Origin: a virus
Length of the DNA stretch: 64,000 nucleotides
IMG/VR virus record: IMGVR_UViG_3300032217_000845
Coordinates: 61,777 to 125,776 of that record
Direction: 5' to 3' (one strand)
The position numbers and the translations under genes are program-made. The notes under the pieces were generated by a model. The model did not search any database. It saw only the letters and a program-made list of their open reading frames with translations, and was not told where the DNA came from. Each line of letters begins with the position of its first letter. Position 1 is the first letter of the stretch. Shown one piece after another: positions 1 to 19,091 of the stretch.

Positions 1-1
1 T

Positions 2-3872: not shown

Positions 3873-4040
3873 TCTGCGAGAGAGTGGGCAGGGGAAACCC
3901 TGCTCATTTTTTTTGTTAGTCCAATGTGTATTCGTTTTTTCCTAGCACGACACGCTAACACGGGGGCTACTTGCTTTTGTCGGTGCTAGGGTGTAAGATA
4001 GTGTTATCGGAAACTCCGATAGGAAATGAAAGGGAAACAA

Positions 4041-4521: not shown

Positions 4522-4729
4522 GTTTTAGGAACTCCCCCGATTATGTCGGGGGTTTTCTTTTGCCTGTTTCGGTTCGGGGTGTATTCGTTTTTTCTTGACA
4601 TACGGCAAGGATTATAACGAAATGATAACGCTACACTAATACGAAGTTGCTAAGTTGCTTTTGTCGGTGGTAGGTGGTAAGATTGTATTAGTTAGAAAGT
4701 CTAACTACTTATAGAAAGGGGCGACCAAA

Positions 4730-5089: not shown

Positions 5090-5271
5090 CCAAGCAAGTA
5101 GTTAGGCGATTAGGGAAACCTAGTCGCCTTTCTGCGTTTTTGCGTGGGGGCAGGGTGTATTCGTTTTTTCCATTACGACACGCTAAGGGCTATCGTGATT
5201 TGTATTTGTCGGGGTAGTATGATACAATCGTATTGTTAGTTGGAAAGGCTGACTAACTGAAAGGGAAACAA

Positions 5272-5670
5272 ATGGCAGTAATAGATTGGGACGAAGTAGA
5301 TAGTGGTCTAGTAGGTGCTAAGGCTATTGCCTTTGATACTTGCCACAAAATCTATGTCCTTATGGACGATGAGCAGGTTGCCGAAATGCGTGGCTACGGA
5401 TACGGCGATGAACCAGATAGTTTCTACACTTGCGATGAAATGTCGCATAGCGAAATGCTGGAAAAGCTAAAAGAGTGGTTTGAGAAGTCTTGCCCCCTGA
5501 AGTTCATACAAGCAGTAGAAACTAATCACACCGACCCTAACGCTGGTTTTACCACGCTGATTGAGCAGGGTGCTACCGAATACGAACTTTGCTACATCTG
5601 TGGAGCCGAAGGTTGCGAAGGTGAGTGCGAAGACGAAGACGACTACGAAGACGAAGAAGACGAAGAGTGA
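5272..5670 (+). CDS. Hypothetical protein with Cys-rich and acidic C-terminus
   Basis: RBS GAAAGGGAAACAA; cassette context. Confidence 0.8.
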   Translation: MAVIDWDEVDSGLVGAKAIAFDTCHKIYVLMDDEQVAEMRGYGYGDEPDSFYTCDEMSHSEMLEKLKEWFEKSCPLKFIQAVETNHTDPNAGFTTLIEQGATEYELCYICGAEGCEGECEDEDDYEDEEDEE

Positions 5671-5681
5671 GCCTGATAGCA

Positions 5682-5852
5682 ATGCGTAAGTGCGATTGCT
5701 GTAATGGCGAGAGTGTCTTCACTTGCGAGAGTTGTGGAAACGGATTGGCAAGCGAACGAAAACCTTTCGTTGATAGTTCTGGGATTGAGTTTGACCCGAA
5801 CACCGAACACGCTATTTGGGTTTGCGTGGATTGTGCCGAACGCCTAGCCTAG
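5682..5852 (+). CDS. Small Cys-rich (zinc-finger-like) protein
   Basis: CxxC pairs (CDCC, CESC, CVDC); alternative GTG start at 5667. Confidence 0.6.
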   Translation: MRKCDCCNGESVFTCESCGNGLASERKPFVDSSGIEFDPNTEHAIWVCVDCAERLA

Positions 5853-6034
5853 TCCTAAGAAAGTCCCCTTGCGAAAGCAGGGGGATTATTCTTTGCCCGA
5901 TTGGTTGCGAGATGTATTCGTTTTTTCCTGTGGATACGGCAGACACGACACGCCTTAGCCTTGACTTGACTTTATGTTAGTAGTTTGGTATAATGAGAGT
6001 ATCAAGTAAGTTGCTTGATAGAAATGGGAAACAG

Positions 6035-6238
6035 ATGTCAGTAAAGTATCCAGAAGTCAAAACTGTAAAGTTAGTTGGCGAAGACGGAAATGCTTTCGCT
6101 ATCTTGGGAAGAGTTGTGAAGGCTATGCGTGTAGCAGGTCTATCTAAGGAAGTCCAAGACGCTTACTACAAGGAAGCCACTAGTGGCGACTACGACCACT
6201 TGCTACAAACAACGCTTCGCTGGGTAAAGACCAAGTAA
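6035..6238 (+). CDS. Phage hypothetical protein (LVGEDGNAFAILG...SGDYDHLL)
   Basis: Motif I recognise from small phage proteins; cassette context. Confidence 0.75.
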   Translation: MSVKYPEVKTVKLVGEDGNAFAILGRVVKAMRVAGLSKEVQDAYYKEATSGDYDHLLQTTLRWVKTK

Positions 6239-6459
6239 AGAACCCGTCGGGTATTCGGTCAATACTCAAAAGCCCCCTTACTCTCACACACGGAGTAGGG
6301 GGGTTTCTTCTTTTGCTGTGGTTGTGGTTGCTGCTGAAAAAACGAATACACTTCGCACTAGCACGGGGGCGACACGCTTCGTATGTGTTTGCGTATGTCG
6401 GGGGTGTAGAGTATAATAGTATTAGTTAGAAATACTAACTAGAAACGAAAGGGAAAGAA

Positions 6460-6708
6460 ATGGGTCTAAGCAAAGACTTCTATTCGGGGTTTGCCTTTGA
6501 GGAACTCGGTCGTATGGTCGGGGGACACAAGGACTACTTCGTTAGTGAGCAGACTATCGCTATGGTCTGGGCAGAGTGCCACAAGAACGAACGCCTTATC
6601 ACGCTGGCTGGTATGTATCTGGTTGGGTCAAGCGAAAGGGCTGAACGAAACTTACAGAAACTACAAGACGAACTCCGTCTTGTGTTCATTGAGCGAAAGG
6701 TAATCTAA
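6460..6708 (+). CDS. Hypothetical protein
   Basis: RBS GAAAGGG. Confidence 0.75.
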   Translation: MGLSKDFYSGFAFEELGRMVGGHKDYFVSEQTIAMVWAECHKNERLITLAGMYLVGSSERAERNLQKLQDELRLVFIERKVI

Positions 6709-6929
6709 TGGAAGTCGCAGTAATCGTAGTGCTAATCCTTATGAGTGGTCTGGGTGCGATAATCGGTGCTTGTCTTACGACAATGAACTTACGCAAGGCT
6801 TTCATCTTTACTATCCACAATGCTACGGACTATGTAGTAGATGTTCGTATTGACTACTCCACTAAGGAAGTTGTGGTTGTAGATGTAGCCAAGCAACCTG
6901 CTAAACCAAGAGCCAAGCGAACCAAGTAA
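6708..6929 (+). CDS. Small membrane protein
   Basis: TAATG coupling; N-terminal TM helix and basic tail. Confidence 0.7.
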   Translation: MEVAVIVVLILMSGLGAIIGACLTTMNLRKAFIFTIHNATDYVVDVRIDYSTKEVVVVDVAKQPAKPRAKRTK

Positions 6930-7060
6930 GTTCGCATACGGGAAGTCAGTAATGGCTTCCCGTTTCTCTTAGTGTCAAGTTGTATTCGTTTTTTCCTGAC
7001 CTGTGGGACACGGGTCGCTCTTGACTTGACTTTACTAATGCTATGTGATACACTTATCTT

Positions 7061-7249
7061 ATGAATAAGAAAGCGAAGCCAATGAACAAGGCAAACCAAG
7101 CAAGAGCCAAAGTAGAGCGTTCTGCTCTGGCAGTAATCTTGCGTGAGCGTGCCAAGAGCAACGCTTCTGGTGTTCATACCAACAAGGCAACAAAGCGAGC
7201 CAACACCCGTTCGGCTCGTAAATCACAAGCACTTAGAGAGTGGGCATAA
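7061..7249 (+). CDS. Small very basic protein (leaderless)
   Basis: TTGACT 7026 and TACACT 7049, then ATG 6 nt later; K/R/A-rich. Confidence 0.7.
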   Translation: MNKKAKPMNKANQARAKVERSALAVILRERAKSNASGVHTNKATKRANTRSARKSQALREWA

Positions 7250-7375
7250 ATGGAACTAACTGACCTAGAAGCAAAAGCAGTAAAGGCTATTTACAGCGAC
7301 TATCACGATGGGGCTATGGACGCTGACGAAGCACTACACGCCTTAGAACAACTCATCAACAACGACAACGACTAA
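7250..7375 (+). CDS. 41-aa acidic protein (MELTDLEAK...)
   Basis: Directly abuts the previous stop codon; terminator follows. Confidence 0.6.
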   Translation: MELTDLEAKAVKAIYSDYHDGAMDADEALHALEQLINNDND

Positions 7376-7535
7376 GAACAGAGAGAGAGAGCCTATGCTT
7401 CGGCATAGGTTTTCTTTCTGCGTGGGTAGCAGTGGAAAAAACGAATACATACGGAGAGCAACACGCCTATCCTATGGACTTGACTTTTATCCTATGCTTT
7501 GATACAATAGGGGTATAGAAAGAAAGGGGTAGCAA

Positions 7536-7898
7536 GTGGCTACTAAGCAAACAGCAACAGCAAGCATAAAGTTATGGGACTTTACTCTAACTATGTCGGG
7601 TGGCATTATCGGCGTATGGAGTGAATGGACTTACACACTAACCTATGGTTCTGGACAGAGCAAGACCTATCACGACGAACACGGATACTACACAACAGAC
7701 GAGTTAGATGAAGCCCTATGGGTAGAAGCAGTTCGCATTGTTGAGAAGTATGGCAGAAACATTTCAGTTGAGGTAGCAGATGTAGAAGTCTGCCCTGATT
7801 GCGACGAACGCATTACAGACGACAACCCTCTCATTGACGAAACACAATACAGCACGCAGTTCGGTTCTTGTATTGGTTGTTGCGACCCTACGCCATAA
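7536..7898 (+). CDS. Hypothetical protein with C-terminal CxxC pairs
   Basis: RBS GAAAGGGG, GTG start. Confidence 0.75.
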   Translation: MATKQTATASIKLWDFTLTMSGGIIGVWSEWTYTLTYGSGQSKTYHDEHGYYTTDELDEALWVEAVRIVEKYGRNISVEVADVEVCPDCDERITDDNPLIDETQYSTQFGSCIGCCDPTP

Positions 7899-8075
7899 CA
7901 CGACCTAACAAAACGCCACTTAGTCAAACGACTAGGTGGCTTTTGTCTTATCTGGAAGTTGTGGCGAAGTGGCAGTGTATTCGTTTTTTCCTAACAACAT
8001 CGCATTAGTGAGATGTGCTTGACTTTGTCGGGGGTCTGTGTTAGAATAGTATTATCCAAATGAAAGGGGATACAA

Positions 8076-8228
8076 ATGGCAGAGCCATTGCTACACACAC
8101 TTCGTCAGTTATCGGCAGACACCGATGTAGAAATCGGTTTGCTTGCTTACGACGAGCAACTCATTCGCCTTATTAGAACTTCACACAAATACGCAGACTT
8201 GCTTGTGTATGTGGATAGCAACTACTAA
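8076..8228 (+). CDS. 50-aa hypothetical protein (MAEPLLHTL...)
   Basis: RBS GAAAGGGG; own promoter and terminator. Confidence 0.7.
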   Translation: MAEPLLHTLRQLSADTDVEIGLLAYDEQLIRLIRTSHKYADLLVYVDSNY

Positions 8229-8447
8229 ACAATAAAGCGAAACTAAAACCTGGAAGCGAAACTGCTTCCAGGTTTTACTTTTGCCTAATGCGAAGTTGCT
8301 CATCTAGTTCGGTGTATTCGTTTTTTCCGTGAGTGTGCTACACGGGTCGCAACACGCTAGTTCTATGTGCTTGCTTTTGTCGTAGGGTTGTGGTATAATA
8401 AGATTATGAAATGGAACGAAATCTAAGTAGTTCCGAAAGGGAAGCAA

Positions 8448-8693
8448 ATGAACATTTATGAAATCGTAGAGAGTGGTCAGGTTGTATTATCTGCCGATGA
8501 GGAAATGGGAGTTCTAATCACTTGGAACGGCAACTCAATGCTAAACCTCTGGGTAAGAGATTACTCAATGGGAAACTGGGACAACACCGATGTTAGAACA
8601 CGCTACGACATTGACGGAAGTCTAGGCAAGGCATTAGAAGAAAGTAGCGAGTGGCTTTTAGAAATGGAACAGGGTCGCTACGAGAACCACTAA
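8448..8693 (+). CDS. Hypothetical protein
   Basis: RBS GAAAGGG; cassette context. Confidence 0.75.
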   Translation: MNIYEIVESGQVVLSADEEMGVLITWNGNSMLNLWVRDYSMGNWDNTDVRTRYDIDGSLGKALEESSEWLLEMEQGRYENH

Positions 8694-8913
8694 ACAACAA
8701 ACTAACAAGGAACGCCCTCGCAGAAATGTGGGGGCTTTCTTGCTTTTGCTGTGGGTTGTTAGTTCGTTGTTGCTGTGGTGTATTCGTTTTTTCCGTAGCA
8801 TACGACACGACAAAAGATTATGCTAAATGGATTTGACTTTACGATAGGCAACTGCTATACTGAGAGGGTAGTCAGGAGAACAAGGGGTTCGAGGGCTACG
8901 AAAGGGAAACAAG

Positions 8914-9162
8914 ATGTCTAAGAAAGTAATCGTTCTAACCTCTACCTCTCAAGGAGAGCGTGGTCAGGCAGGACACAAGAAAGTCTATGAGATTATCGTA
9001 GATGGCAACAAGGTAGAACTTCGCTGGGGCAAGGCAGAGGAAACCAAACGACAGACACAAACCAAGTGGTTCTCTTACGAGAACGCCGCTTACAACTTCG
9101 CACTAGAAAAGAAATGGGCGAAAGTTGATAAGGGGTATGTAGTCGCTTACCAAGCGATTTAG
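8914..9162 (+). CDS. Stand-alone WGR-domain protein
   Basis: KVYEI...VELRWGK...Q.Q.K.F...A......K...K..KGY pattern. Confidence 0.75.
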   Translation: MSKKVIVLTSTSQGERGQAGHKKVYEIIVDGNKVELRWGKAEETKRQTQTKWFSYENAAYNFALEKKWAKVDKGYVVAYQAI

Positions 9163-9411
9163 CCACGAAAGACTTGTCGGGGTATTGCCCCCCTTTCCCC
9201 CGACAAATGAGAAGCCCCCGACTAGTTCGGGGGTTTCGCTTTTTTGCTGTGGGTGTTTGGCTGTGGTGTTGTTGTATTCGTTTTTTCCATAGCGTTCATA
9301 CACACGGCGAGTGGGGGGGGGGTGTGTTGTTGGCGTTTCGTGTTGCTTTTGTCGGTTGTGTGTGGTATGATAGTTATAGACAATCAAGGTGGTTGTCTGA
9401 AAGGGAAACAA

Positions 9412-9570
9412 ATGAAAATCTATTCACTAATCATCCACGATGAAGTTGCTAATGTTCATCCTGTTTATGAAGTTCATTCTTGGGAGAAGGCAGAAGAAAT
9501 CATCAAGAAAACAATCGAACTAGCAGAAGGCAAGCCTTTTACTTGGGAAGTTGTCGGAAACTCAAACTAA
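9412..9570 (+). CDS. 52-aa hypothetical protein (MKIYSLII...)
   Basis: RBS GAAAGGGAAACAA; corrected start of track ORF 9244..9570. Confidence 0.7.
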   Translation: MKIYSLIIHDEVANVHPVYEVHSWEKAEEIIKKTIELAEGKPFTWEVVGNSN

Positions 9571-9774
9571 GTTAGTCAAAGTAGTCCCCCTGCGTATGTG
9601 GGGGGATTATTTTTTTGTCTGTGGGTGTGCGTGGTTGTTTGGAAGTGTATTCGTTTTTTCCGTAGGTATAGCAACACGGCGAAGGGGGGGGGCGACTTGA
9701 CTTTGTCGTATCTATGTGTTATGATGTAAATACAAGGGAAACGAAATAGAAGTAGTTTCGTAAAGGGGTTCTAA

Positions 9775-10107
9775 ATGAGTTGTAAAGATTGGTCTATCGC
9801 AGTAGTAGCCGAAAAGCCTATGTGCGACATCTGCCCTAAGTTTGGGTTTATCACTAAGGTTGCCGAGTATGACGCTAGAACGCAGTTCGGGGGAAACCCG
9901 TGGGCGTTTATGTGCGAGAGTTGCTACGGCTACTTTGGGTTTGACCGACTAGGTCTAGGCTATGGTCAGCGACTAATAACAGAGAGCGAACACACTCACG
10001 AGTGGATAGAAGTAAATCTCGCCGAGTATGAAACTTACGAGTTTAGCCAGAGCGAGCCAGATACTACGCTATGTTCGCAATGTGGGCTACATAAGCCAGC
10101 AGAATAA
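9775..10107 (+). CDS. Hypothetical Cys/His-rich protein
   Basis: CDIC...YDART...WAFMCESC...LGLGYGQ; cassette context. Confidence 0.75.
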   Translation: MSCKDWSIAVVAEKPMCDICPKFGFITKVAEYDARTQFGGNPWAFMCESCYGYFGFDRLGLGYGQRLITESEHTHEWIEVNLAEYETYEFSQSEPDTTLCSQCGLHKPAE

Positions 10108-10296
10108 GGTCTAGGGGTTAGGTCAAGTGCCTAGCCCCTAATCTTATGTTCGGGGTCTGTGGAAAAAACGAATACACCTCGCTTGGCACGGCTACTAGCT
10201 TTTGCTGTGGTGTGCTGTCTTACTTGACTTTCTTATGTTTCTATGTTAGGCTCTCGGTAGAGCCTGAAAATCTCGGGTTCTAGAAAGTGGGTTCCA

Positions 10297-10755
10297 ATGT
10301 CCAAGCCAGCCAGCGATAAGCAGGTAGCGTTTCTTACCACGCTCGCAAGCGAGCGTATCTACGAGGGTGCGACCGAGTTCGCTACCCTTACCTCTGCCGA
10401 GGCTTCCGACCTAATCGGTCAGTTGCTAAACGCACCACGCAAGTCCAGCACCTCTACTTCATACGAGCGTATTACGGAAGAGGGCGTGTATCAAAACGCC
10501 GAGGGCGACATCTTCCGTGTCCAGCGTTCCCGTGAGAGTGGCAACCTCTACGCCAAGCGTCTAGACATCTTTGAGGGTGGCTTTGTCTATGAGGCAGGGC
10601 TACTTCGCAAAATCACACCTAGCGACCGACTAGGCGTTGAGCAAGCCAAGGCTCTTGGAGTTCAGTATGGCTTCTGTGTAGTCTGTGGTATCTTGCTTAC
10701 CGACCCTAAGAGCGTTGAGCAGGGTATCGGTCCTGTGTGTATCAAGCGTGTCTAA
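10297..10755 (+). CDS. DUF6011-like zinc-ribbon protein
   Basis: C-terminal CVVCGILLTDPKSVEQGIGPVC. Confidence 0.75.
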   Translation: MSKPASDKQVAFLTTLASERIYEGATEFATLTSAEASDLIGQLLNAPRKSSTSTSYERITEEGVYQNAEGDIFRVQRSRESGNLYAKRLDIFEGGFVYEAGLLRKITPSDRLGVEQAKALGVQYGFCVVCGILLTDPKSVEQGIGPVCIKRV

Positions 10756-10994
10756 CGCCTAGCGTTAGTCAAGACCCCCTTGCCAAACGGCAGGGGGGTT
10801 TTCCTTTGTCTAATGCGAAGTTGTGGCACGGGGGGAGATGTATTCGTTTTTTCTGTGGTGCTGGTTTTGGGCTGTGGTCGTTATCAAGTTGTTATGTATT
10901 TATTATGCGTTTATGTAGAAAATGTCTGTGGAGTAGGCTATAATGGTATTAGTTGGAAGTTAGCGAATGTCTAACTCAACTGAAAGGGACGCAA

Positions 10995-11210
10995 ATGGCT
11001 AAGCCAAGTGTGAAGTTAGTTCAGGAATGGGAAGTTGCTTACGAGAGTGGGCTAGTGAAAGTGTCTTACGGCACGGCTGTCTTTGAGCAGGACTATTGGA
11101 AAGTGGAAAACAGGATTATCAACAAGGTTCAGTATTTCTACGGAGAAACTGCGTGGTCGGACGCTAGGCGTAGAGCAAGCGACATTGACTTTGGTGCGTG
11201 GAGTTTCTAA
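10995..11210 (+). CDS. Hypothetical protein
   Basis: RBS GAAAGGG; start corrected from the track. Confidence 0.7.
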   Translation: MAKPSVKLVQEWEVAYESGLVKVSYGTAVFEQDYWKVENRIINKVQYFYGETAWSDARRRASDIDFGAWSF

Positions 11211-11487
11211 CTAAATAATCAAACAAACAAACTAGGCAGGGTTCTCCTCTCTGCCTAGTTTTGTTTTTGCCTGTGGTAATGCGAAGTTGCGTGCGTGCGT
11301 ATGTGTAAGTGCGTGCCTGTGGTTGCGTTCGTGTATTCGTTTTTTCCTAACTACTACGGAACGAAACACGGGTGCTAGTTCGTTATCTGTTTGTTATAGA
11401 AAGTTAGTGTATGAACTTGACTTTATCTTAGTTAGGGTATAGACTACATTTGTAGTCGCAAGGGCTACCAGATGAAAGAGGGAACAA

Positions 11488-11811
11488 ATGGCAACTATCA
11501 AGATTACTTGGGTATCAAAGGGATACTTGGGCGAGTTCAGGGACGCAACTATCCTTGACCTAATCAACAAGGGCTACGATGTTCGTGGCAACGCAACAGC
11601 AGAGTTGGACTTTGACTTTCCAGAGGGCGACACTCTAATCTGTAATGCTATCTACGCAAACACTAACTCCTACACAGGAAAGTTTTGGGACGCATTACAG
11701 GCAGTTATTCCAGCAGACAGACCACACACGGCTCTAAGTATGGGCGACAAGGTTTCTATTGACGGACGAGAGTATGTTTGCTCGGAGTTCGGTTGGAAAC
11801 TTGTAGCCTAG
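11488..11811 (+). CDS. Hypothetical protein (HTALSMGD...YVCSEFGW C-terminus)
   Basis: Cassette context. Confidence 0.75.
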   Translation: MATIKITWVSKGYLGEFRDATILDLINKGYDVRGNATAELDFDFPEGDTLICNAIYANTNSYTGKFWDALQAVIPADRPHTALSMGDKVSIDGREYVCSEFGWKLVA

Positions 11812-12012
11812 CCAAACAGCCAAACAGCCAAACAGCCAGCCGAAAGGTTGGTTGTTTGGTTTTTGCGTTAGTGCGAAGTTGTGGCTGCCAGGAAAAAACG
11901 AATACAGACCCTAGCCCGACACGCCCGACACGACAAGCAACTTGACTTTATTGCTGTGGTATGTTAGACTACAAATGTAGTCAGAAAGATTACGGAACTG
12001 AAAGGGAAACAA

Positions 12013-12231
12013 ATGAACCTACTACAAGCAGAAATCCTAGTTATCGGACTTGAGTTTGAGATTGCTATGGACGGAAAGATGTCTGTTAGTGCCGAACCAG
12101 CGATGAAGTCTTTGGGTCGCCTGATGAACATTGACGCTTATGCTCACTTTGGTAAAGGCGTAAAGGGTCGCCAAAAGGCTCTTGAGTGGCTCAAGGAAGC
12201 GATTGCGGAAGCAGAGAAGCAAGAAGCCTAA
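12013..12231 (+). CDS. Hypothetical protein
   Basis: RBS GAAAGGGAAACAA. Confidence 0.75.
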   Translation: MNLLQAEILVIGLEFEIAMDGKMSVSAEPAMKSLGRLMNIDAYAHFGKGVKGRQKALEWLKEAIAEAEKQEA

Positions 12232-12297
12232 TACGAAGTTAGAAGCCCCCTACGGAAGCGTGGGGGGTTTTCTCGTGCCTGTGGAGTTATGAACACC

Positions 12298-12318
12298 TGT
12301 GGATAACCCTGTGGATAA
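12298..12318 (-). promoter_or_regulatory. Two tandem perfect DnaA boxes
   Basis: TGTGGATAA (reverse complement of TTATCCACA) at 12298-12306 and 12310-12318. Confidence 0.7.
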
Positions 12319-12411
12319 CTTTGGTGGGGTTTGTATTCGTTTTTTCCTAATCACGCTTGCGAGTTGCCTCTACAATAGGAACACGCTTACATTTAGAAAG
12401 AGAGGCTAACT

Positions 12412-12642
12412 ATGGTTTGGATACAAACAAACTTTACCGCCGAAGCAATGAACACGGGCAAGCCAGCGACAGAAACCCCTGTTGTAGCGAAGCCTGAACC
12501 TGTCGTCAAGAAGAAGGCTAAGGCTGAACCTGTGGCAGAAGTAGTAGCAGAAGTAGAAACACCTGCGGTTGAGGTTGAGGAAGTAGTCCTCGCTGAACCA
12601 GAGGTCGCCGAGCCAGAGGTCGCTGAACCCGAAGCAGAGTAA
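12412..12642 (+). CDS. Low-complexity acidic protein (AEPEV repeats)
   Basis: RBS GAAAGAGAGG; terminator at about 12661-12690. Confidence 0.7.
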   Translation: MVWIQTNFTAEAMNTGKPATETPVVAKPEPVVKKKAKAEPVAEVVAEVETPAVEVEEVVLAEPEVAEPEVAEPEAE

Positions 12643-12739
12643 TCACGGCTTATAGTAAAGTCCCCCTTGACTAGAAATAGTTAGGGGGATTTTCTATTTG
12701 GTGTTGCTTTTGTCTGTGGTATGTGATAGACTATAAATA

Positions 12740-13010
12740 ACAAGGAAGCGACGGCTAACTTGGAGTATGGCTGAACAACCTCAATCGTCAGATGGGGGGG
12801 TAAGGCAATGTCGGATACTAGCGTATCGTCTTAGCGGACAAACGGCAGGTGTGCTGAAAAGCGGGCTTAGAACCGAACTGACTTGGCATTGGTGGTAAAA
12901 CGCAATCCACCTACTCAACTACAAACATAAACGGGCTGGTGTGGCGTTTATGTGGCTAACATTAGTGGCTACCAGACAGAACCCTTAGCGGAAACGCTAG
13001 GGGTATTTCT
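12740..13010 (+). ncRNA. Candidate structured non-coding RNA cassette
   Basis: Promoter TTGCTT(12704)-17-TAGACT(12727), terminator 12981-13004 and several internal hairpins. The only ORF noticed is 43 aa (12767..12898) and lacks the array's RBS. Confidence 0.55.
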
Positions 13011-13153
13011 GTTTTTGCGATGTCTGCGGTTGCGGTATGTATTCGTTTTTTCCTAGCCCCTCACGAGAGGCGACACACGCACGGCAGGTGGAGTTGCTTT
13101 GTTTAGGTGTTAGTGGTATGATTACTTTGTAATCAAGCAACGAAAGGGAAAAA

Positions 13154-13522
13154 TTGGAAAACAGAATTACTGAAAAGCAATTAGGGCTTCTAAGAAAACT
13201 AGCCAAAGAAAAATACGCACCAAGTTTGGTTGCGGAGTTGGAGAAGTTTCTAGCAACTGATTTGAGCAAGCAAGGGGCTAGCAACCTTATTGAGAAGTTC
13301 CTAGAAGCACCGAAGAAAAGCGAAAGTCCAGAATACAAAGCCGAACTTGCCGAGAGAGCCAAGCAAGCGAGAGAACGAGCAGAACTAGCCGAGCAAGCCA
13401 AGCAAGCAGAAACCGAGAACTGCCGAGAGTGTAAGCAGGGACACCCTGTCGCACATTTCAATTGTAGTTTCCCGAACAGGATTGGACACACTAGGCACTG
13501 CACCGCTGACTTGTGTTTCTAG
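13154..13522 (+). CDS. Hypothetical protein; N-terminal domain shared with the 10297 ORF
   Basis: TTG start after GAAAGGG; ITEKQL...LSKQGASNLIEKFLEAP. Confidence 0.7.
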   Translation: MENRITEKQLGLLRKLAKEKYAPSLVAELEKFLATDLSKQGASNLIEKFLEAPKKSESPEYKAELAERAKQARERAELAEQAKQAETENCRECKQGHPVAHFNCSFPNRIGHTRHCTADLCF

Positions 13523-13725
13523 TTAGCAACTAGGGAAGTCCCTTAGCCAGAAATGGTTAGGGGGCTTTCTTGCTTTTGGGCTGTGGCTGTGGGTTAGGTG
13601 TATTCGTTTTTTCCTAGCCTCAACTGCGACACGACACGCATACGATAATGACTTGACTTTCTGTTATCTGTGTGTTAGAATACTTATGTATTCAAAGGGA
13701 ATACAAAAACGAAAGGGAAACACAA

Positions 13726-13932
13726 ATGTCAGTAAAAACTCTAGTAGTAGAAATCCACTACCAAGACGGCAGACCAACTCTAAAGCCAATCTACGAGTGC
13801 CACAGCGTAGAAAAGTTTGAGGAGTTTGTGGCTTGGCACAAGGAAAACCTACCAATGAGAACCACCACAACTCTCAAAGCCTACGACTACAACTCAACCA
13901 CCCCTGAACTAACAGAGATGATTATCAAGTAA
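13726..13932 (+). CDS. Hypothetical protein
   Basis: RBS GAAAGGGAAACAC; start corrected from the track. Confidence 0.7.
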   Translation: MSVKTLVVEIHYQDGRPTLKPIYECHSVEKFEEFVAWHKENLPMRTTTTLKAYDYNSTTPELTEMIIK

Positions 13933-14118
13933 GTTAGGCAACCGAGAACCCCCTACGAAAGTGGGGGGTTTTCTTTTGTCTGCGGGTGCGTGTGTTAGTG
14001 CGAAGTTGTAGAGTGTGAAATCGGTAGCGTAAGAAAAAACGAATACACTACGGACACGACAACACGGGGGCGAGTGTGGCTACTTGACTTTTGCTGTGGT
14101 AAGTGGTAGAATAGTATT

Positions 14119-14550
14119 ATGGCAAAACTTCTAGTGCTACAAGGCTTAGTGGCTTCGGGCAAATCAACTTACGCTAAGGGACTTCTATCTATTCACCCTG
14201 CGGGCTACGCTATGCGTATCAACAATGACGACTTATCTACGGCTATGTTTGGCTCTGCGTTTGGCGGTGGTGCTAACACGGCTCAACTGCTAGGCAAACT
14301 TCGGGCGGACTTAGTTCGTCTAGCGTTTCGCAATGGTTTTGAGTTAGTCATTATGGACAACACAAACCTAAACCCGAAAGCCGTCAAGTCATTAGAAAGA
14401 TTGGCGGAGAGTTGCGGTGTTGAGTTTGAGTTGGACAACTCGTTTCTAAGTGTGCCTATTGCGGAGTGCTTGCGTAGAAATGCTCTGCGTGAAAACCCTG
14501 TTCCCGAAAAGGTGGTTTTAGAAATGGCTCGCCTTATTGGAGATGATTGA
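14119..14550 (+). CDS. P-loop kinase, T4 polynucleotide-kinase N-domain/AAA_33-like (leaderless)
   Basis: Walker A GLVASGKST, RINNDDL, VIMDNTNL and ECLRRNALR...VPEKVV motifs. Confidence 0.8.
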   Translation: MAKLLVLQGLVASGKSTYAKGLLSIHPAGYAMRINNDDLSTAMFGSAFGGGANTAQLLGKLRADLVRLAFRNGFELVIMDNTNLNPKAVKSLERLAESCGVEFELDNSFLSVPIAECLRRNALRENPVPEKVVLEMARLIGDD

Positions 14551-14614
14551 CTTTTGCGTTTCTATGTGGTAGAATACTTTTGTAGTCAAAGGGATTGACT
14601 ACTGAAAGGGAAAG

Positions 14615-14815
14615 ATGAACAAGTTCGTTATCACAAAGTCAATAGCAGTAGTCAAGGCAGTTGCTCGTGGTGTTGCGGTAGCAACCGAAAGCAAGGCGAC
14701 CACAAACCGAAAGGCGAAAGTTGCTAACGAGGTAGCCAAGTGCGTTGCCGACTTAGGACTAAACCCTGTTGCGAGTGTGAAGCGTGTTGTGCGTATGGTG
14801 GAAACCCTGCGGTAA
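14615..14815 (+). CDS. Small basic hypothetical protein
   Basis: RBS GAAAGGG; its promoter -35 overlaps the previous TGA. Confidence 0.65.
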   Translation: MNKFVITKSIAVVKAVARGVAVATESKATTNRKAKVANEVAKCVADLGLNPVASVKRVVRMVETLR

Positions 14816-15033
14816 GACTTACAAAGCAAACCCGTCTAGCGAAAGTTAGGCGGGTTTTCTTTTGCTTGCGGTGTTTGCTTCGTGCGTTGTTGTATTCGTT
14901 TTTTCCTAAGTGCTTGCCTAGTGCGACACGCTAGAAAGAAAGTTTGTAAATGAACTTGACTTTTCTGCGGTAGCCTGATAGACTACAAAGGTAGTCAAGG
15001 CAAAGGGCTAAGACACAGATGAAAGGGAAACAA

Positions 15034-15363
15034 ATGACCACAGCAACACAGACCACCGCAAAGGTAATCTCTAAGGTTGAGTTGAGTGCTAAGGGCGTAA
15101 AGGCTCTACAAGCGTTCAACAAAGCAAAGGAAGCGGAAGCAAAGGTAAAGGCAACTAAGTCAAAGGCGGAAGCAATTTTGCGGACAGAGTTGGGCGAAAC
15201 CCCGAACACACAAGCAACTATTCAGGGCGTAGTTGTTGCCAGCGTAGTTGGAAGCAAGAATACTTCGTTTGACCGAGATGCTCTAAAAGAGTTTCTAGGT
15301 GAAGAGAAATACAACGAGTTCCTGCGGACAACCGAATACACTTACATCAAAACCGCTAACTAA
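15034..15363 (+). CDS. Hypothetical protein, paralog of 2959..3312
   Basis: RBS GAAAGGGAAACAA; FDRDALKEFL motif. Confidence 0.75.
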   Translation: MTTATQTTAKVISKVELSAKGVKALQAFNKAKEAEAKVKATKSKAEAILRTELGETPNTQATIQGVVVASVVGSKNTSFDRDALKEFLGEEKYNEFLRTTEYTYIKTAN

Positions 15364-15552
15364 GTTAGCAAGCGAGCAACCGCTAACCGAAAGGTTGGCG
15401 GTTGTTTGCGTTTTTGTTTTGCGGTGTTGCGTTTCGTGCGTGTGTTCGTGTGTCTGCGGTAAGCGTGGAAAAAACGAATACACTTTCGCCAGCCAGCCAC
15501 GCCACGAAAGCGAGTGTTTGCTTTTGTCTGCGGTTAGTGTTAGAGTGTAAGT

Positions 15553-15690
15553 ATGGACATTAGATTTTATGCGTGGAAAGCAGTCGCTAAGGTTGCTAGG
15601 TATTTCAGCAGAGTTGGGTATAACCTATTTAGGCGAGCCGAACACTTCTCTTATCTTTCAGGTAAGAAAGCAAGCAAGTATAAGGCTTGA
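15553..15690 (+). CDS. 45-aa basic protein (leaderless; MDIRFYAWK...)
   Basis: TTGCTT 15518 and TAGAGT 15541, ATG 6 nt later. Confidence 0.6.
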   Translation: MDIRFYAWKAVAKVARYFSRVGYNLFRRAEHFSYLSGKKASKYKA

Positions 15691-15742
15691 CTTTACTGCG
15701 GTAAAGTGATAGAATAGTATTACCAGACAACACTAAGAAAGG

Positions 15743-15991
15743 GTGAAAATGTCTAGCAACTATCCAGACGGCTCTATGATGGGTTCAGGTATTTACGCAA
15801 GCGAGGTTTCGTATGAAGAGTTTGAGTGCGAAAATGAAGAGTGCGGTAAGACCAATGAAGCAGGTGAAACTTCTACTGACGATTGGGGAAACTACTCTAT
15901 CGAGTGTGAGTTCTGCGGTGCTAACTATTTAGAGAGTTCTCTAAGTGATGACCGAGATGACTACTTAGCAGACTACGACCCGAATAACTAA
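15743..15991 (+). CDS. Small acidic zinc-ribbon-like protein
   Basis: CENEEC and CEFC; RBS GAAAGGG (ATG 15749 is an alternative start). Confidence 0.7.
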   Translation: MKMSSNYPDGSMMGSGIYASEVSYEEFECENEECGKTNEAGETSTDDWGNYSIECEFCGANYLESSLSDDRDDYLADYDPNN

Positions 15992-16050
15992 ATAGACTTA
16001 TGCGGTAAGGCGGGGAAAGCCGAACGCAACTTTACATAACTAAATAAACT

Positions 16051-16165
16051 TCTGCCTAACTTGTTTCCCCCTTTCCGTTAGGCAGAGAAAGAGAAACGGG
16101 ACTGCCCCCTAACTAACCCGTTTCTCCTAAACCGCTAGGCGTTTATTCGTCTAGCGGTTTTGTCT
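16051..16165 (+). ncRNA. Candidate small RNA: two hairpins with C/U-rich loops plus terminator
   Basis: Stem 16051-60/16077-86 with loop TTGTTTCCCCCTTTCC; stem 16091-100/16117-26 with loop ACTGCCCCCTAACTAA; terminator about 16129-16160. Confidence 0.5.
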
Positions 16166-16466
16166 TTGTCTGCGGTGTTTGTTTTTGTGTGTTTGTTGTA
16201 TTCGTTTTTTCTTGTGCTTGTGAAACCGCTTCCACTACGCAACTTTGTATTAGTAGGTTGCTTCGCTTCCTTCGCCTTCGCTTCGTGTTGTTGCTTCGCT
16301 TCGCTTTCGTTCGCTTCGCTTCTGCGGTGCTTCGCTTAGTGAGTTGTTTCGTTATCATTTTGTTATAAAGTCGTTATCGTCTTTGTAATCTTATTACTTG
16401 ACTTTTATTCTGCGGTAGAGTAGAATAAGAGTATGTAGAAAATCTACATAGAAAGAAAAGGGAAAG

Positions 16467-16685
16467 ATGAACAACAAGGCAAGAGATACCCGAGCAAGTT
16501 GGGGACTAGTTTCATTTATGTTGGCATTGTTTATTGGTGCTGACGCTTTGGGAAACATAGACACTACGGACTATTACCACGACAGAGCATTAGGTTTCTT
16601 TGTTCTGTTCTTAGGTATTACTTTCGTGCTTTACACTTGGAACGCTATTCAGTATGCGGTATTCCTAAAACGCAATAGACGCTAA
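16467..16685 (+). CDS. Small 2-TM membrane protein (last cassette)
   Basis: Promoter, RBS AAAAGGG and terminator. Confidence 0.7.
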   Translation: MNNKARDTRASWGLVSFMLALFIGADALGNIDTTDYYHDRALGFFVLFLGITFVLYTWNAIQYAVFLKRNRR

Positions 16686-16926
16686 CAACTTCACAACTTA
16701 GCAACCGCCTAGCCGAGAAAGGTTAGGCGGTTCTTTGTTTTTGTTTGTGCTTCTTTCTTTTGCTTCGCTTCGTGCTTCGTGAGAGGTTGAGAAAAAACGA
16801 ATACGCTTCGCAACTTTGTATTAGTGTTTGTCTGCGGTGCTTCGCTTCTAGGTTCTTTCTTTGCTTTGCTTCGCTTCGTAGTTCTTTCGTGCTTCTTTGT
16901 CTTAGTTGCTTCTTTGTCTGCGGTGC

Positions 16927-17742
16927 TTGACTTTCTTGCTTCTTTGTTCTATGTTTGTTTGCTTCGCTTCGCTTCGCTGTTATCATTTCGTTATTATTCT
17001 GTTTGACTTCTTTGCTTCTTTGTTCTATGCTTATTCTTTGTTGTTATCATTTCGTTATCTTTGTATGTTCTTGACTTTGTTAGTCGTTTGTTCTATGCTT
17101 ACTCTTTGTCTGCGGTAATGCTTCTAAGGGGTTGTTTGTTATCATTTCGTTATAAAGGTATAAAAAAAGTGCCTTTGTAGAATAAGCAAGGCGACACTTT
17201 CAGGGATAGGCGTGTGTGTTTGTATCATCTAAGGGGTCGTGGCTTCTATGAGCCTTATAGAGCCTTTTGAGATAGGGGACTTTCAGGATTATTTGGGTTC
17301 GTTATCTGTTCGTTATCTGTCTGTTATCTGTTCGTTATGTGCGGTAATGCTTCTAAGGGGTATTTCCTTGCTTCGCTTCTCTTAGTTAGTTGTTCTCTTT
17401 CCCTGTGCTTACTTGCTTAGTTCTATGCGGTAATGCTTCTACTGCTTGACTTATGTGCTTCTATGTAGTAGAATAGTGTTATCTATTCGTTATCTAATAG
17501 ACTTGACTTTATTAGAATACTTTGATAGAATAGTATTGTCTGCCTCTTTGACCTGACTTGACTTAGTTAGGTTAGGCTTCCCTAACTTACTTCCCTGCGG
17601 TAATGCTTCTACAAGTTAGTTAGTGCTTCGCTTCGCTTCCCTACTTAGTTAGTTGTTTGACTTATTCGCTTATGTCTGTTAGAATAGTGTTATCTATTTG
17701 TTATCTAACTTACTTGACTTTGTTATAGTTTTATGTTATAAT
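16927..17742 (+). promoter_or_regulatory. Seven consensus promoters with no credible downstream gene
   Basis: TTGACT-17-TAnnnT at 16927, 17003, 17071, 17446, 17503, 17657 and 17714. Confidence 0.7.
17567..17585. promoter_or_regulatory. IdeR/DtxR-type iron box (1 mismatch)
   Basis: TTAGGTTAGGCTTCCCTAA versus consensus TWAGGTWAGSCTWACCTWA. Confidence 0.65.
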
Positions 17743-17788
17743 AGTAATGTCTATCTATTGACTATCTCAACCCCTACCCCCTGCCTAC

Positions 17789-17807
17789 TTAGGTTAGGCT
17801 TACCTTA
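17789..17807. promoter_or_regulatory. IdeR/DtxR-type iron box (full consensus match)
   Basis: TTAGGTTAGGCTTACCTTA. Confidence 0.75.
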
Positions 17808-17937
17808 CCTACCCCCTGCCTAGCCCTGTGCGGTAATGCCCTTATAGGCTTACTATTCTCTGCGGTAATAGTGGTAATGGTTCGTTATCATTTCGTTATC
17901 TATTAGTTAGTGCTTGGCTTTGCTGGGTTAGTCTAGG

Positions 17938-17956
17938 TTAGGTTAGCCTTACCTAA
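17938..17956. promoter_or_regulatory. IdeR/DtxR-type iron box (full consensus match)
   Basis: TTAGGTTAGCCTTACCTAA. Confidence 0.75.
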
Positions 17957-18581
17957 CTAACTAAGTATTAGTTAGTGCTAACTAGGTATGACTTACCCCC
18001 TTGTATGTATTACCTACCTACCTATACCCCCTACCCCTACCCCCTTATGCTTACCTATCTCTGCGGTAAGTGCTTTATAGGTTGTTTGTATCCTAATGAC
18101 TTACTTACCTAGGTAAAGACTTTCATCACTTAGATAGTCATTGACTTACTTAGTCATTGACTTACTCACTTAGTCATTGACTTACTCATCTACTCATCTA
18201 CTCATCTACCTTTGTAGTGGATAGAGTGCTTAGTGCTAAGTTGATAATCGTTAGTGTCCTAATGACTTACTTACCTAGGTAAATAATAGTTAGTTAGTGC
18301 CTAGTTCGTTAGTGTCCTAATGATAGTCGTTCGTATCCTAATGATTTCATAAACTAATAAACATAATCGTTTGTATCCTAATGATTTAGATAGTAAAGAG
18401 AGCATTGACTACCTTACATAACAATAAATAATAATGTTATGTCAAGTAAGAATTTTCGTAGCATAATACAGGAAACGATTAGCAGGAACCCCAGATACTG
18501 CAACTGCCGTCTGACCCGCCAAAAGCACTAGACGCTAAGGTATCAACTCTTCGGTACAGTAGAGCCAGAATAGGTGCTAGT

Positions 18582-19091
18582 ATGTACCTTATGGATAGAA
18601 GACCAGCAAGGAAACAGCCCCTTCCCCCAAAGGAAGCCGCTTACCTCAATACCCTCAATCAAGACGACCTTATGGCTCGCGCTTACGAACTTTACACTGC
18701 AGGCTGGACGCTGCAAGCTATCGGCGATGCCCTTGAGCCACCACGTCCCCGCAGTACTGTGCGGTCTTGGCTCCTAAGGTACCAACTCCCTGAGTCAGGC
18801 AAACCATCTAAGGTCCCGTCCCCTCTATACAAGACACATAAGGACGGCTACCAGAAGAAACGCAACTCGCCGGGGATTCTTCCAGACGAACTTGAACTGA
18901 TTCAGCAACTTGCCCCCCGTGCCCGCACATTCCGAGCCAAGATGTCATCAAACGACTCTGCCAGGGTTGCTAATGACCAGTTGACAGCTATCTGTATCCG
19001 CCTATATGATACTGGAGTCACAACTTCCGAACTTGCAAAAGCTGCTGGAGTGACGTATCGTGCAATGGTGAAACGTTTAGGAAAACGCTAA
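18582..19091 (+). CDS. Double HTH DNA-binding protein
   Basis: GWTLQAIGDAL...RSTVRSW and GVTTSELAKAAGVTYRAM helix-turn-helix patterns. Confidence 0.7.
   Translation: MYLMDRRPARKQPLPPKEAAYLNTLNQDDLMARAYELYTAGWTLQAIGDALEPPRPRSTVRSWLLRYQLPESGKPSKVPSPLYKTHKDGYQKKRNSPGILPDELELIQQLAPRARTFRAKMSSNDSARVANDQLTAICIRLYDTGVTTSELAKAAGVTYRAMVKRLGKR

Follow-up and report, generated by a model that had tools for sequence, protein, structure and literature searches.

A gene-free block of promoters, putative iron boxes and iterons at the edge of palindrome-purged early DNA in an uncultured siphovirus: a possible boundary of the first-entering DNA

The left end of phage T7 carries a terminal repeat, short repeat arrays and the tandem host promoters A1-A3, which read into the early genes and help to pull the DNA into the cell. 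In lambda, late transcription crosses the joined cos ends, and in corynephage the tox gene is controlled by DtxR. Two-step injection with a cis-acting stop signal is, to our knowledge, confined to the T5-like phages, and its mechanism is unsettled. A preprint on T5 (bioRxiv 10.1101/866236) locates the injection stop signal where the terminal repeat ends on its inner side, in 1.2 kb of untranslated, repeat-bearing DNA. As described there, this region is full of repeats and palindromes and includes eight boxes for a host DNA-binding protein, and sensitivity to EcoRI and CRISPR is limited to the first-step DNA. The iron regulator IdeR works on tandem boxes upstream of bfrB (PMC9132128).

The locus described here belongs to an uncultured siphovirus that is kin to actinobacterial phages and has a genome of 125.8 kb (125,776 bp). 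The window, which is the whole 64,000-nucleotide stretch of DNA analysed, comprises positions 61,777-125,776 of IMG/VR record IMGVR_UViG_3300032217_000845 and is the right half of this genome; coordinates are those of the window unless given as genome positions. The phage looks lytic. A TerL search of viral contigs returned 483 relatives, 80 of which were kept for comparison. In searches against 50,697 phage records, neither the gene-free block (megablast) nor the landmark element at its right end (blastn) showed any similarity. The element is also absent from DSL-LC01, the nearest named phage, which was itself reportedly assembled from a metagenome (PMC10611076) and has no annotated gap of more than ~300 bp upstream of TerL. 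The cultured relatives Pumpernickel and GMA2 were rejected as guides to the genome ends because their layout is too distant.

The ORF-free block occupies 16,686-18,581, between the last early gene (16467-16685) and g169. Its features and those adjoining it are as follows.

1..18450, plus strand: part of the palindrome-purged zone within the window, from palindrome counts; early small-gene array and block
16703..16732, plus strand: intrinsic terminator closing the last early gene; stem of 12 bp, then a T run
16791..16804, plus strand: early-intergenic motif GAAAAAACGAATAC, the last of 41 copies, all within the zone
16927..17099, plus strand: three weak promoter-like units (16927, 17003, 17071), each matching 9/12 of the consensus
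16979..17899, plus strand: eight GTTATC-N5-GTTAT boxes
17112..17839, plus strand: five copies of GCGGTAATGC (17112, 17341, 17427, 17597, 17830), found genome-wide only in the block
17160..17290, plus strand: conserved non-repetitive island, with homologues in L007 (E 3e-41) and L014 (E 7e-6)
17446..17474, plus strand: gene-less early-class promoter, 10/12, TTGACT-17-TAGAAT; 28.3 bits
17503..17531, plus strand: gene-less early-class promoter, 10/12 with TG extension; 33.6 bits
17567..17585, no strand: putative iron box, two mismatches; ~+29 to +47 of the 17503 promoter
17657..17685, plus strand: gene-less early-class promoter, duplicate of 17446 (repeat D3), 10/12; 24.4 bits
17714..17742, plus strand: gene-less early-class promoter, duplicate of 17503, 11/12, TTGACT-17-TATAAT; 34.4 bits
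17789..17807, no strand: putative iron box, two mismatches; ~+40 to +58 of the 17714 promoter
17938..17956, no strand: putative iron box, one mismatch; retained in L007 despite diverged flanks
18088..18384, plus strand: five iterons GT(A/G)TCCTAATGA, genome-wide only in the block
18137..18186, plus strand: three copies of GTCATTGACTTACT (18137, 18153, 18173), genome-wide only in the block
18405..18432, plus strand: promoter-like site in the AT-rich block end, TTGACT-16-AATAAT, 10/12; this stretch is missing from L007
18468..18560, plus strand: landmark element of ~95 bp, a single copy in the genome, aligned in nine sequences
18582..19091, plus strand: g169, DNA-binding protein with two HTH domains (Pfam HTH_23)

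A preliminary description of this DNA had seen no credible gene here, which agrees with our searches: there are no ORFs of at least 60 aa in 17,119-18,573, eight short ORFs in 16,723-18,405 have no match among PHROG families, a tRNA search of the block found none, and the three Rfam matches (E 0.48-0.92) are not near threshold. A structured non-coding RNA was rejected on the same Rfam result and on the lack of a fold, since the island has no stable structure (z = +0.79) and the consensus of nine element sequences yields two predicted pairs with no covariation. Instead of genes, the block contains 29 direct-repeat families and seven inverted pairs within 2 kb, and all the features that had been named were found, with promoters and iron boxes far above chance in shuffle tests. 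The block is unlikely to be an artefact of misassembly. In run X1, which is possibly the source sample and hence not independent data, one Logan contig (18,668 bp) spans 15,500-19,217 with one mismatch. Related-strain contigs from X4, X5 and X6 run across the block too, and differ from it by indels that fall between repeats (skips of 221, 31, 164, 99, 293 and 168 bp).

Seven consensus promoters had been proposed. A plus-strand consensus scan recovers all of them (16927, 17003, 17071, 17446, 17503, 17657 and 17714) and also 18405, but they are not equals. Scored with a weight matrix trained on 15 gene-linked early promoters of the same phage (lowest training score 26.5 bits), four are early-class, 16927 is intermediate at 18.5 bits, and 17003 and 17071 are weak at less than 15 bits; because of these differing scores we count four true early-class members rather than seven. 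Five sites reach at least 15 bits; 200 shuffles give a mean of 0.005 such sites. The three left-hand units form repeat family D2 with a period of 65-76 bp, and the reported duplication of a promoter pair with a 211-bp period is real, 17443-17548 and 17654-17759 being 77% identical. Downstream of the gene-linked early promoters, a ribosome site of the GAAAGGG type and a start codon come within ~25-45 nt, and no Shine-Dalgarno sequence with a start codon follows the promoters of the block. Such orphan promoters occur only in the window and L007, plus one in L021. On the plus strand there is no terminator between 16,733 and 19,613, the next being at 19614.

The GTTAT direct repeats noticed earlier correspond to GTTATC-N5-GTTAT boxes starting at 16979, 17043, 17138, 17301, 17323, 17478, 17689 and 17884, which are eight of the 14 copies in the genome; those at 16979, 17043, 17478 and 17689 begin 24-28 bp ahead of the first base of a -35 hexamer. 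The five GCGGTAATGC copies belong to a co-oriented CTGCGGT cluster. Near the right end, TCCTAATGA lies at 18091, 18257, 18315, 18336 and 18376, and two of the iterons enclose a 12-bp CCTAGG-core palindrome, TTACCTAGGTAA, at 18105 and 18271, which occurs nowhere else in the genome and accounts for palindromes previously placed at 18106 and 18271. The threefold and fivefold repeats of the preliminary description are GTCATTGACTTACT and TCCTAATGA. An AT-rich stretch lies at 18,340-18,450. Across 42 sources, the 700 nt preceding the landmark element are 68-fold enriched in TCCWAAYGA.

Iron boxes were sought with the 19-bp IdeR consensus of PMC4598388 at no more than two mismatches. The 125,776-bp genome has exactly three such putative IdeR/DtxR sites, all in the block and with one or two mismatches, as against none in 20 shuffles, so the iron boxes of the preliminary description stand as predicted sites. 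They closely resemble the Streptomyces DmdR1 sites in Table 1 of PMC7174319. A search for a phage-encoded DtxR-family protein (PF01325) gave no match, and a literature search for DtxR/IdeR sites as phage decoys gave nothing relevant by title or abstract. Boxes are found in three or four lineages only: 18 of 25 testable g169 loci have none even at five mismatches or fewer, and in L061 they lie 24-110 nt before the landmark element.

The block is the final 1.7 kb of a purged zone of 30.4 kb (genome 49,834-80,226) that is almost devoid of 14 of the 16 four-base palindromes. Only CTAG (143) and TATA (44) are tolerated; there are 24 leaks in the 30.4 kb, no copies at all of CATG, CGCG, GCGC, GGCC, GTAC or TTAA, and three of AGCT inside versus 602 outside. 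Both edges are sharp. The left one carries a tandem pair of GAAAAAACGAATAC (genome 49,893 and 49,928). At the right one, where the block had been said to end the palindrome-free zone, CTAG and TATA are indeed the only 4-bp palindromes between 15,900 and 18,451. The zone ends 10-60 bp before the CCGTCT box of the landmark element, which consists of a GGAAAC box, a fixed 38-nt offset, a CCGTCT..CCAAAAGCAC box, TAAGGTA and ACAGTA; the late genes for packaging and structure start after it.

This step was measured as palindrome counts in the 3 kb before and after the CCGTCT box: 3 versus 102 in the window, 22 versus 133 in L012, 12 versus 105 in L015, 9 versus 95 in L021, 21 versus 137 in L025, 35 versus 147 in L050, 37 versus 69 in L018 and 44 versus 103 in L054. 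In L007 (0 versus 108) and L014 (12 versus 116) just ~1.4-1.6 kb of sequence precedes the box. Thus the step coincides with the element in the window and in 10 of the 14 relatives measured, counting L080 (23 versus 44) as a weak case, and is missing from four (L041, L061, L068 and L083). Because the purged DNA of L054 includes the terminase gene, the step tracks the element and not the class of gene. G005 has a zone of 30.9 kb that starts at the same tandem motif pair, with GAAAAAACGAATAC arranged in the same way, and that of G006 is ~14 kb; G001 has the element and no purged zone, and the zone is not seen in Pumpernickel or DSL-LC01. We found no literature on region-specific avoidance of palindromes in an early region.

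An ORF-free block is found at the same place in many relatives. Its motif islands outlast the divergence of the flanks, as seen between the window and L007 and in L014, L018 and L021, with weak homology to the island at 17160..17290 in L018/L019. Beyond these islands the blocks cannot be aligned and the order of repeats is not conserved; L007 itself aligns with gaps of 31 and 7 bp. Block, element and g169 move together as a cassette, even to positions downstream of the terminase gene: L060-63 and L083 have a 1.1-kb ORF-free repeat block with two iron boxes, the element and a g169 homologue downstream of TerL, and in some relatives the cassette lies between TerL and portal. Iterons in multiple copies occur only where g169 directly follows.

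Comparison with relatives suggests that g169 truly starts at 18591. The protein has a paralogue at 20786-21340 and 43% identity to gp76 of Microbacterium phage Pumpernickel, and its model (pLDDT 89) consists of two helical domains joined by a loose linker. An assignment as small terminase is not supported: Pfam, NCBIfam, a protein atlas and a PDB fold search gave generic HTH or sigma-like matches; the PDB search contained no terminase-like fold, its best matches having E values of 0.7 or worse.

Our tentative reading, to which we give somewhat less than an even chance, is that the block is the cis-acting boundary of a DNA unit that enters the cell first, possibly a long terminal repeat, in the manner of the T5 injection-stop region. 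Because the block is the last 1.7 kb of early DNA purged of restriction sites, we take it to mark the end of the first-entering DNA. The 30.4-kb early unit would have to function in the host at a stage when the phage has as yet no protection from restriction, perhaps as a T5-like terminal repeat; it would stop 10-60 bp before the conserved element, with the late genes after it. The block would offer three kinds of binding site: gene-less copies of early promoters, iron boxes, two of which lie ~30-40 nt past the start point of the second promoter of each 211-bp unit, and iterons with CCTAGG-core palindromes in AT-rich DNA, which are probably targets of the two-HTH protein encoded downstream. 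Host RNA polymerase, iron-loaded IdeR and this phage protein may then assemble on the block, and the complex may mark or hold the boundary by pausing DNA transfer or by setting the edge of a repeat or of packaging. The same complex could also act as a gate on late-operon transcription that started at the strong early-type promoters.

The idea that the block marks an entry, terminal-repeat or packaging boundary, already put forward in the preliminary description, gains indirect support from the position of the zone edge at a conserved element in the window and in relatives. Against our reading, the strongest promoters and the smallest genes adjoin the block, which fits entry of this end first better than entry last. 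Transcription-powered entry, another of the early proposals, is disfavoured because the early units are each closed by a terminator that precedes the following promoter. Contig depth hints that the zone is present twice, that is, terminally repeated: to the left and right of ~18.1-19.2 kb it is 28.9 versus 14.8 in X1, 22.2 versus 12.6 in X6 and ~5 versus ~3 in X5, with a ratio of just 1.13-1.23 in X4, and since depth sums over strains the two-fold difference may reflect a strain mixture. Contig ends in the vicinity of the element are scattered rather than stacked at one position (eight viral-contig and 14 metagenome matches). The 'direct terminal repeats' listed by IMG/VR for G001 and G003 were rejected as assembly overlaps of 127 and 108 bp. 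A bolder version, in which IdeR and stalled RNA polymerase clamp the entering DNA at the block in an iron-gated two-step delivery, is decidedly doubtful; the clamp would hold back the restriction-sensitive remainder or the late programme, and would be released by early proteins or by a shift in iron status.

Several other explanations address the same features. The block might abut a cos- or pac-type genome end at the left edge of the element, and packaging would proceed to the right, into g169 and the genes for terminase and portal; the purged zone would then be packaged last and injected first, with the block as the very first DNA to enter, the iterons serving terminase in a cosQ-like way and the orphan promoters reaching the late genes once the ends are joined. 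A single-copy element just upstream of packaging genes is the canonical siphovirus layout, and its boxes are phased, with a 10-nt indel between two groups. Promoters of at least 26 bits and monocistronic mini-genes all lie within 12 kb of the block end, CTGCGGT is co-oriented (17 plus, 0 minus in the zone) and restricted to the last 6 kb, the cumulative GC skew ceases to rise at the block, and 16,733-19,613 is free of terminators. However, contig ends are not piled up at the element, g169 has two HTH domains and no small-terminase fold, its Pumpernickel homologue lies 29.6 kb from the first base of the record, and the equally sharp left edge of the zone would need a separate stop or repeat boundary. 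We regard a genome end at this point as unlikely. A left end of the T7 type at the left border of the block was rejected, because the DNA following it would be palindrome-rich. Purely transcriptional control is likewise improbable in our estimation. Here the block would be the regulatory leader of g169 and the late operon, with no role in entry or packaging, its promoters being gated by IdeR roadblocks, phage proteins bound to the GTTATC boxes and iterons, and autoregulation by g169. Iron boxes upstream of g169 in three separate lineages, the restriction of multi-copy iterons to loci with g169 directly downstream, the resemblance of g169 to two-HTH transcription factors, a ferritin/Dps-like gene in the operon (25532-26023, Pfam E 1.7e-13), the action of IdeR on tandem boxes at bfrB (PMC9132128), and the lack of a terminator between the block promoters and g169 all speak for it. 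Yet it leaves unexplained why the purging should end so close to the element (within tens of bases), which it does also without g169 (L025, L050) and with TerL purged (L054), and most relatives' blocks have neither iron boxes nor orphan promoters.

The remaining explanations carry far less weight. The left part of the block, with its terminator, T-rich run containing CTGCGGT, 14-mer, GTTATC box and promoter, follows the order of a standard early intergenic region, so that the whole could be decayed modules of little function from which recombination between repeats deleted genes; indels between repeats among strains and the 31- and 7-bp gaps in L007 agree with this. But iron boxes, iterons and palindromes are peculiar to the block and outlast flank divergence, and an ORF-free block is kept in place in many relatives, which makes mere decay very unlikely. 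A replication origin or terminus, with iterons and AT-rich DNA activated by nearby promoters or serving as a meeting site of forks, is more improbable still. It would account for the iterons, palindromes, AT-rich stretch (18,340-18,450) and tandem promoters upstream, and the GC skew changes slope at the block, which on a circle of ~135 kb would lie about halfway round from the skew minimum (genome 14,148). That minimum, however, lies beside the primase gene and not at the block; the replication genes are at genome 2.7-17 kb, more than 60 kb away, DnaA box near-matches number 14 in the window (chance level) and none in the block, and the cassette lies between TerL and portal in some relatives. 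The origin proposed in the preliminary description is thus poorly supported. Its suggestion of a sponge for host factors would have replicating copies titrate IdeR and RNA polymerase, derepressing host iron uptake and starving host promoters. The only three high-quality iron boxes of the genome and five early-class promoter sites do share 1 kb of gene-free DNA, but most relatives lack the boxes and the early region already has ~20 equal promoters, and as a main function titration appears to us extremely unlikely.

The combination of zone, edge element and block of host-factor sites occurs in an abundant group of freshwater actinobacterial phages and, if the boundary reading is correct, would provide an independent natural system for studying staged genome entry and the protection of first-entering DNA. 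An iron-gated clamp, were it real, would be the actinobacterial counterpart of the DnaA-box model proposed for T5, and relatives would then plug different host-factor sites into one boundary cassette. The predicted iron boxes may tie the phage programme to host iron sensing beyond the classic case of a toxin gene.

Compared with lambda cos, the locus likewise has a site that is unique and directly precedes the packaging genes, together with phased protein-binding boxes and upstream promoters that could read across it. Cohesive ends are a property of lambda and would be hypothetical here; the block is far longer and more repetitive, and a search for a small-terminase fold in g169 found none. 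The T7 left end, too, is ~1 kb of gene-free DNA close to a genome boundary, with arrays of short repeats and strong host-type promoters in tandem; unlike those of T7, the promoters of the block face the late operon with the early genes behind them, and the early units here each end in a terminator. The iron boxes share with actinobacterial IdeR, DtxR and DmdR1 operators a 19-bp inverted repeat with one or two mismatches to the published consensus, and tandem boxes are also known at bfrB (PMC9132128). They differ from these operators in their setting, which is the gene-free DNA of a phage that looks lytic, at 30-60 nt past promoter starts or far from promoters.

A further comparison is with Repeat Region 3 in the left terminal repeat of T5 (bioRxiv 10.1101/866236). 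The paired T5 boxes are for DnaA, whereas those of the block are putative IdeR sites and the block has no DnaA-box match; the order of repeats is conserved across relatives of T5 and not here; and full-strength gene-less promoters distinguish the block, whose phage is of an unrelated actinobacterial-type siphovirus lineage known through sequencing only. What the two have in common is a long stretch of untranslated DNA, 1.2 kb in T5 and 1.7 kb in this phage, crowded with direct and inverted repeats and with palindromes, in which boxes for a host DNA-binding protein, here predicted, are clustered. In T5 this stretch forms the inner end of the DNA first exposed to restriction, and the position of the block at the edge of the purged zone suggests that it may do likewise here.

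Four-base palindrome counts along the genome delimit a zone of 30.4 kb (genome 49,834-80,226, or window -11,943 to 18,450; record segments L090 and L091 hold genome 49,834-61,776) in which 14 of the 16 palindromes are nearly absent and six have zero copies. AGCT occurs 3 times in the zone versus 602 times outside, and TGCA 3 versus 514 times. Only CTAG and TATA are tolerated, with CTAG equally dense inside and outside. The 24 residual palindromes are evenly distributed, and both edges are sharp, to ~200 bp or less. The preliminary description had placed a non-coding, repeat-packed block at the end of a palindrome-free stretch, and this block is indeed the zone's final 1.7 kb. Similar zones are found in related genomes (30.9 kb in G005 and ~14 kb in G006); avoidance in G003 is mild and genome-wide, and G001 has no purged zone, although it possesses the landmark element described below. 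Because almost all restriction-type palindromes are gone and there are two sharp edges, the zone is best explained as DNA that needs to work before the phage is protected.

All 41 copies of the motif GAAAAAACGAATAC lie inside the zone (genome 49,893-78,570, window up to 16,804; 10 on the + strand and 31 on the - strand), and most precede an early promoter by a few tens of bases. The left edge of the zone is marked by a tandem + pair, and the final copy (16,791-16,804) lies at that of the block. G005 has 43 copies in the same layout, and the motif is also present in the related loci L015, L018 and L036. Within the zone, the word CTGCGGT is found 17 times on the + strand and 0 times on the - strand, always in the last 6 kb (window 12,563-18,061). 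It is thus co-oriented and end-proximal, and any Chi-like role would be speculative.

The virus record comprises 125,776 bp (completeness rating 93%), of which the window is bases 61,777-125,776. Both record ends are inside a repetitive tail-fibre gene and share a near-identical repeat of it (genome 1-200 and 125,577-125,776), indicating that the assembly broke within this gene; since complete relatives are ~135 kb, ~9 kb is probably absent. Small genes, all on the + strand, are arrayed along window 1-16.7 kb; every one has a separate promoter of a single conserved type (TTGACTTT...TG.TAGAAT), and many also have a terminator of their own behind them. The late genes are of the siphovirus type, with the portal protein showing 70% identity to its counterpart in Actinomycetia phage DSL-LC01 and 57-64% identity to the portal proteins of large Microbacterium phages.

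Features of the block and late region (window coordinates)
17446, + strand, early-class promoter, 28.3 bits
17503, + strand, early-class promoter, 33.6 bits
17657, + strand, early-class promoter, 24.4 bits
17714, + strand, early-class promoter, 34.4 bits
18,468-18,560, landmark element of ~95 bp, immediately after the zone, single-copy in the genome
18582/18591-19091, g169, a two-HTH-domain protein gene (HTH_23 motif)
21643-23028, TerL, late gene
23712, portal, late gene
25,532-26,023, ferritin/Dps-like gene (Pfam Ferritin, E 1.7e-13; PHROG 'DNA binding protein'), directly after the portal gene
42047, major head protein, late gene
49473, tape measure, late gene

The block is non-coding, as had been proposed: no ORF of at least 60 aa lies within 17,119-18,573, none of its eight short ORFs matches a PHROG family, and searches of it found no tRNA and no credible Rfam match. 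Its + strand is the most pyrimidine-rich 1.5 kb of the genome. Promoters were scored with a weight matrix trained on 15 gene-linked early promoters of the phage (lowest training score 26.5 bits). Of the seven consensus promoters initially listed, the four tabulated score as full early-class members, whereas 17003 and 17071 are weak; five sites in the block reach at least 15 bits, compared with a mean of 0.005 over 200 shuffles. The 211-bp duplication, the GTCATTGACTTACT triplet and two 12-bp palindromes are present where they had been reported, both palindromes being built on the CTAG core that the zone tolerates. The GTTATC boxes and the five-copy TCCTAATGA iterons also stand, with 8 of 14 and 5 of 5 genome copies, respectively, falling in the block.

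An 18.7-kb Logan contig of sequencing run X1 crosses the block with one mismatch; as X1 may be the source sample, this contig represents an independent assembler rather than independent data. Related strains from three further runs also span the block, with indels between repeats. Misassembly is accordingly unlikely, and the block is hypervariable. Contigs from all four runs break or branch further on, at a 69-bp segment (19,190-19,258) at the start of an NlpC/P60 lipoprotein gene. This segment has several alternative flanks on either side, suggesting a mosaic junction produced by recombination among co-occurring strains.

The iron boxes, 19-bp operators of actinobacterial iron-dependent repressors, are borne out as well. 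Exactly three genome sites lie within two mismatches of the IdeR consensus as printed in PMC4598388, all three in the block, compared with 0 in 20 shuffles. They are similar to the Streptomyces DmdR1 sites in Table 1 of PMC7174319, and two of them follow the expected starts of promoters 17503 and 17714 by ~30 and ~40 nt, respectively. The phage genome encodes no DtxR-family protein. Among 80 related loci of 483 TerL relatives, 10 of 844 bins of 1.2 kb contain a site with three or fewer mismatches, all within these blocks. The lineages with boxes are those of the window and L007, L060-63, L083 and, weakly, L048; at 18 of the 25 g169 loci that could be tested, no box with five or fewer mismatches is present. 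GT-rich repeats fill the block of L018, and in L061 and L083 it carries tandem arrays rich in AGCT. In the latter two, which are distant relatives (12,900-13,100 and 13,000-13,290, respectively), the equivalent block is a long array of AGCT-containing units with 49-53 palindromes per 500 bp, the opposite of avoidance, followed by two consensus iron boxes. The ferritin/Dps-like gene shares the late operon with the iron-box-carrying leader.

The element can be aligned across relatives whose blocks otherwise resist alignment. It includes a GGAAAC box, a fixed 38-nt offset and a CCGTCT...CCAAAAGCAC box, and further on a 10-nt indel separates two groups of relatives. It shows no consensus RNA structure and is therefore a DNA-level site. 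Its first box (GGAAACGATT, 18,468-18,479) resembles a shortened form of the 41-copy motif (GGAAAAAACGAATAC), a resemblance only. Palindrome counts rise across it in the following sources.

Palindromes in the 3 kb before and the 3 kb after the CCGTCT box of the element
Window: 3 before, 102 after
L012: 22 before, 133 after
L015: 12 before, 105 after
L021: 9 before, 95 after
L025: 21 before, 137 after
L050: 35 before, 147 after
L018: 37 before, 69 after
L054: 44 before, 103 after
L007: 0 before, 108 after (only ~1.4-1.6 kb of sequence before the box)
L014: 12 before, 116 after (only ~1.4-1.6 kb of sequence before the box)
L080: 23 before, 44 after (weak step)

No step occurs at the element in L041, L061, L083 or L068. 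In L054 the terminase gene falls on the purged side, and in L060-63 and L083 the entire cassette (a repeat block free of ORFs, a pair of iron boxes with perfect or near-perfect sequence, a single TCCAAATGA iteron, the element and the g169 homologue) is downstream of TerL. The step thus tracks the element and not gene class, suggesting that the DNA carries a physical landmark.

Several observations would fit a physical genome end located at the element, in which case the block would be first to enter. Promoters are strongest and single-gene units smallest beside the block, CTGCGGT occurs in one orientation and only in the zone's last 6 kb, and cumulative GC skew climbs from its minimum and flattens at the block. 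Siphoviruses usually carry cos or pac at a place matching that of the element. Cultured relatives are too distant for the end type to be transferred by analogy. Should the zone be a terminal repeat, an end at the element and a boundary at the block would both hold. Contig depths (zone side versus beyond) are 28.9 versus 14.8 in X1, 22.2 versus 12.6 in X6 and ~5 versus ~3 in X5, with a lower ratio in X4 (336 versus 272-296); because these are contig means summed over strains, they give a weak hint that each genome carries two copies of the zone. The replication origin and transcription-powered entry that had also been suggested are both unlikely. The block has no DnaA boxes, the replication module is distant (genome 2.7-17 kb), and the global skew minimum, a better origin candidate than the block, lies at genome 14,148 (segment L088), in a divergent gap that separates replication genes on the - strand from the primase-helicase gene on the + strand. 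Transcription-driven entry is disfavored because every early unit terminates ahead of the next promoter.

A purely regulatory region would account for the iron boxes and iterons, but would leave the palindrome step unexplained. The iteron TCCWAAYGA is enriched 68-fold over the 700 nt that precede the element (37 there versus 27 in 1.43 Mb elsewhere; 42 sources) and is multi-copy only where g169 is directly downstream, and we infer that g169 may bind it. The late operon is headed by g169 (18,582-19,091) and its paralogue, a 184-aa two-HTH protein just upstream of TerL (20,786-21,340; 28% identity, E 2e-6). Gp76 of Microbacterium phage Pumpernickel, beside the terminase, is 43% identical to g169, and relatives with ~80% TerL identity have the homologue downstream of TerL. 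An AlphaFold model of g169 (18 sequences, pLDDT 89) has two small helical domains with a loose linker between them; a PDB fold search returned weak HTH/sigma-like matches only, none at E ≤0.001, and a small terminase is thus unsupported.

We consider the block most likely to be the cis-acting boundary of a first-entry unit, a reading by analogy with the position and make-up of the T5 injection-stop region. Host RNA polymerase, IdeR and a phage HTH protein would bind the block, which would gate transcription reading on into the late operon; the interval 16,733-19,613 contains no terminator. The DNA-entry boundary suggested earlier gains indirect support in that a sharp-edged zone closes with the block. 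Contig ends close to the element are scattered and do not cluster at a single position. In T5, as described in bioRxiv 10.1101/866236, sensitivity to EcoRI and CRISPR is limited to first-step-transfer DNA, and the injection stop signal lies within an untranslated repeat region of 1.2 kb, which contains boxes for host DnaA and occupies the terminal repeat's inner end. The block matches that description in kind of make-up and probably in position, but has IdeR boxes and gene-less promoters where the T5 account has DnaA boxes.
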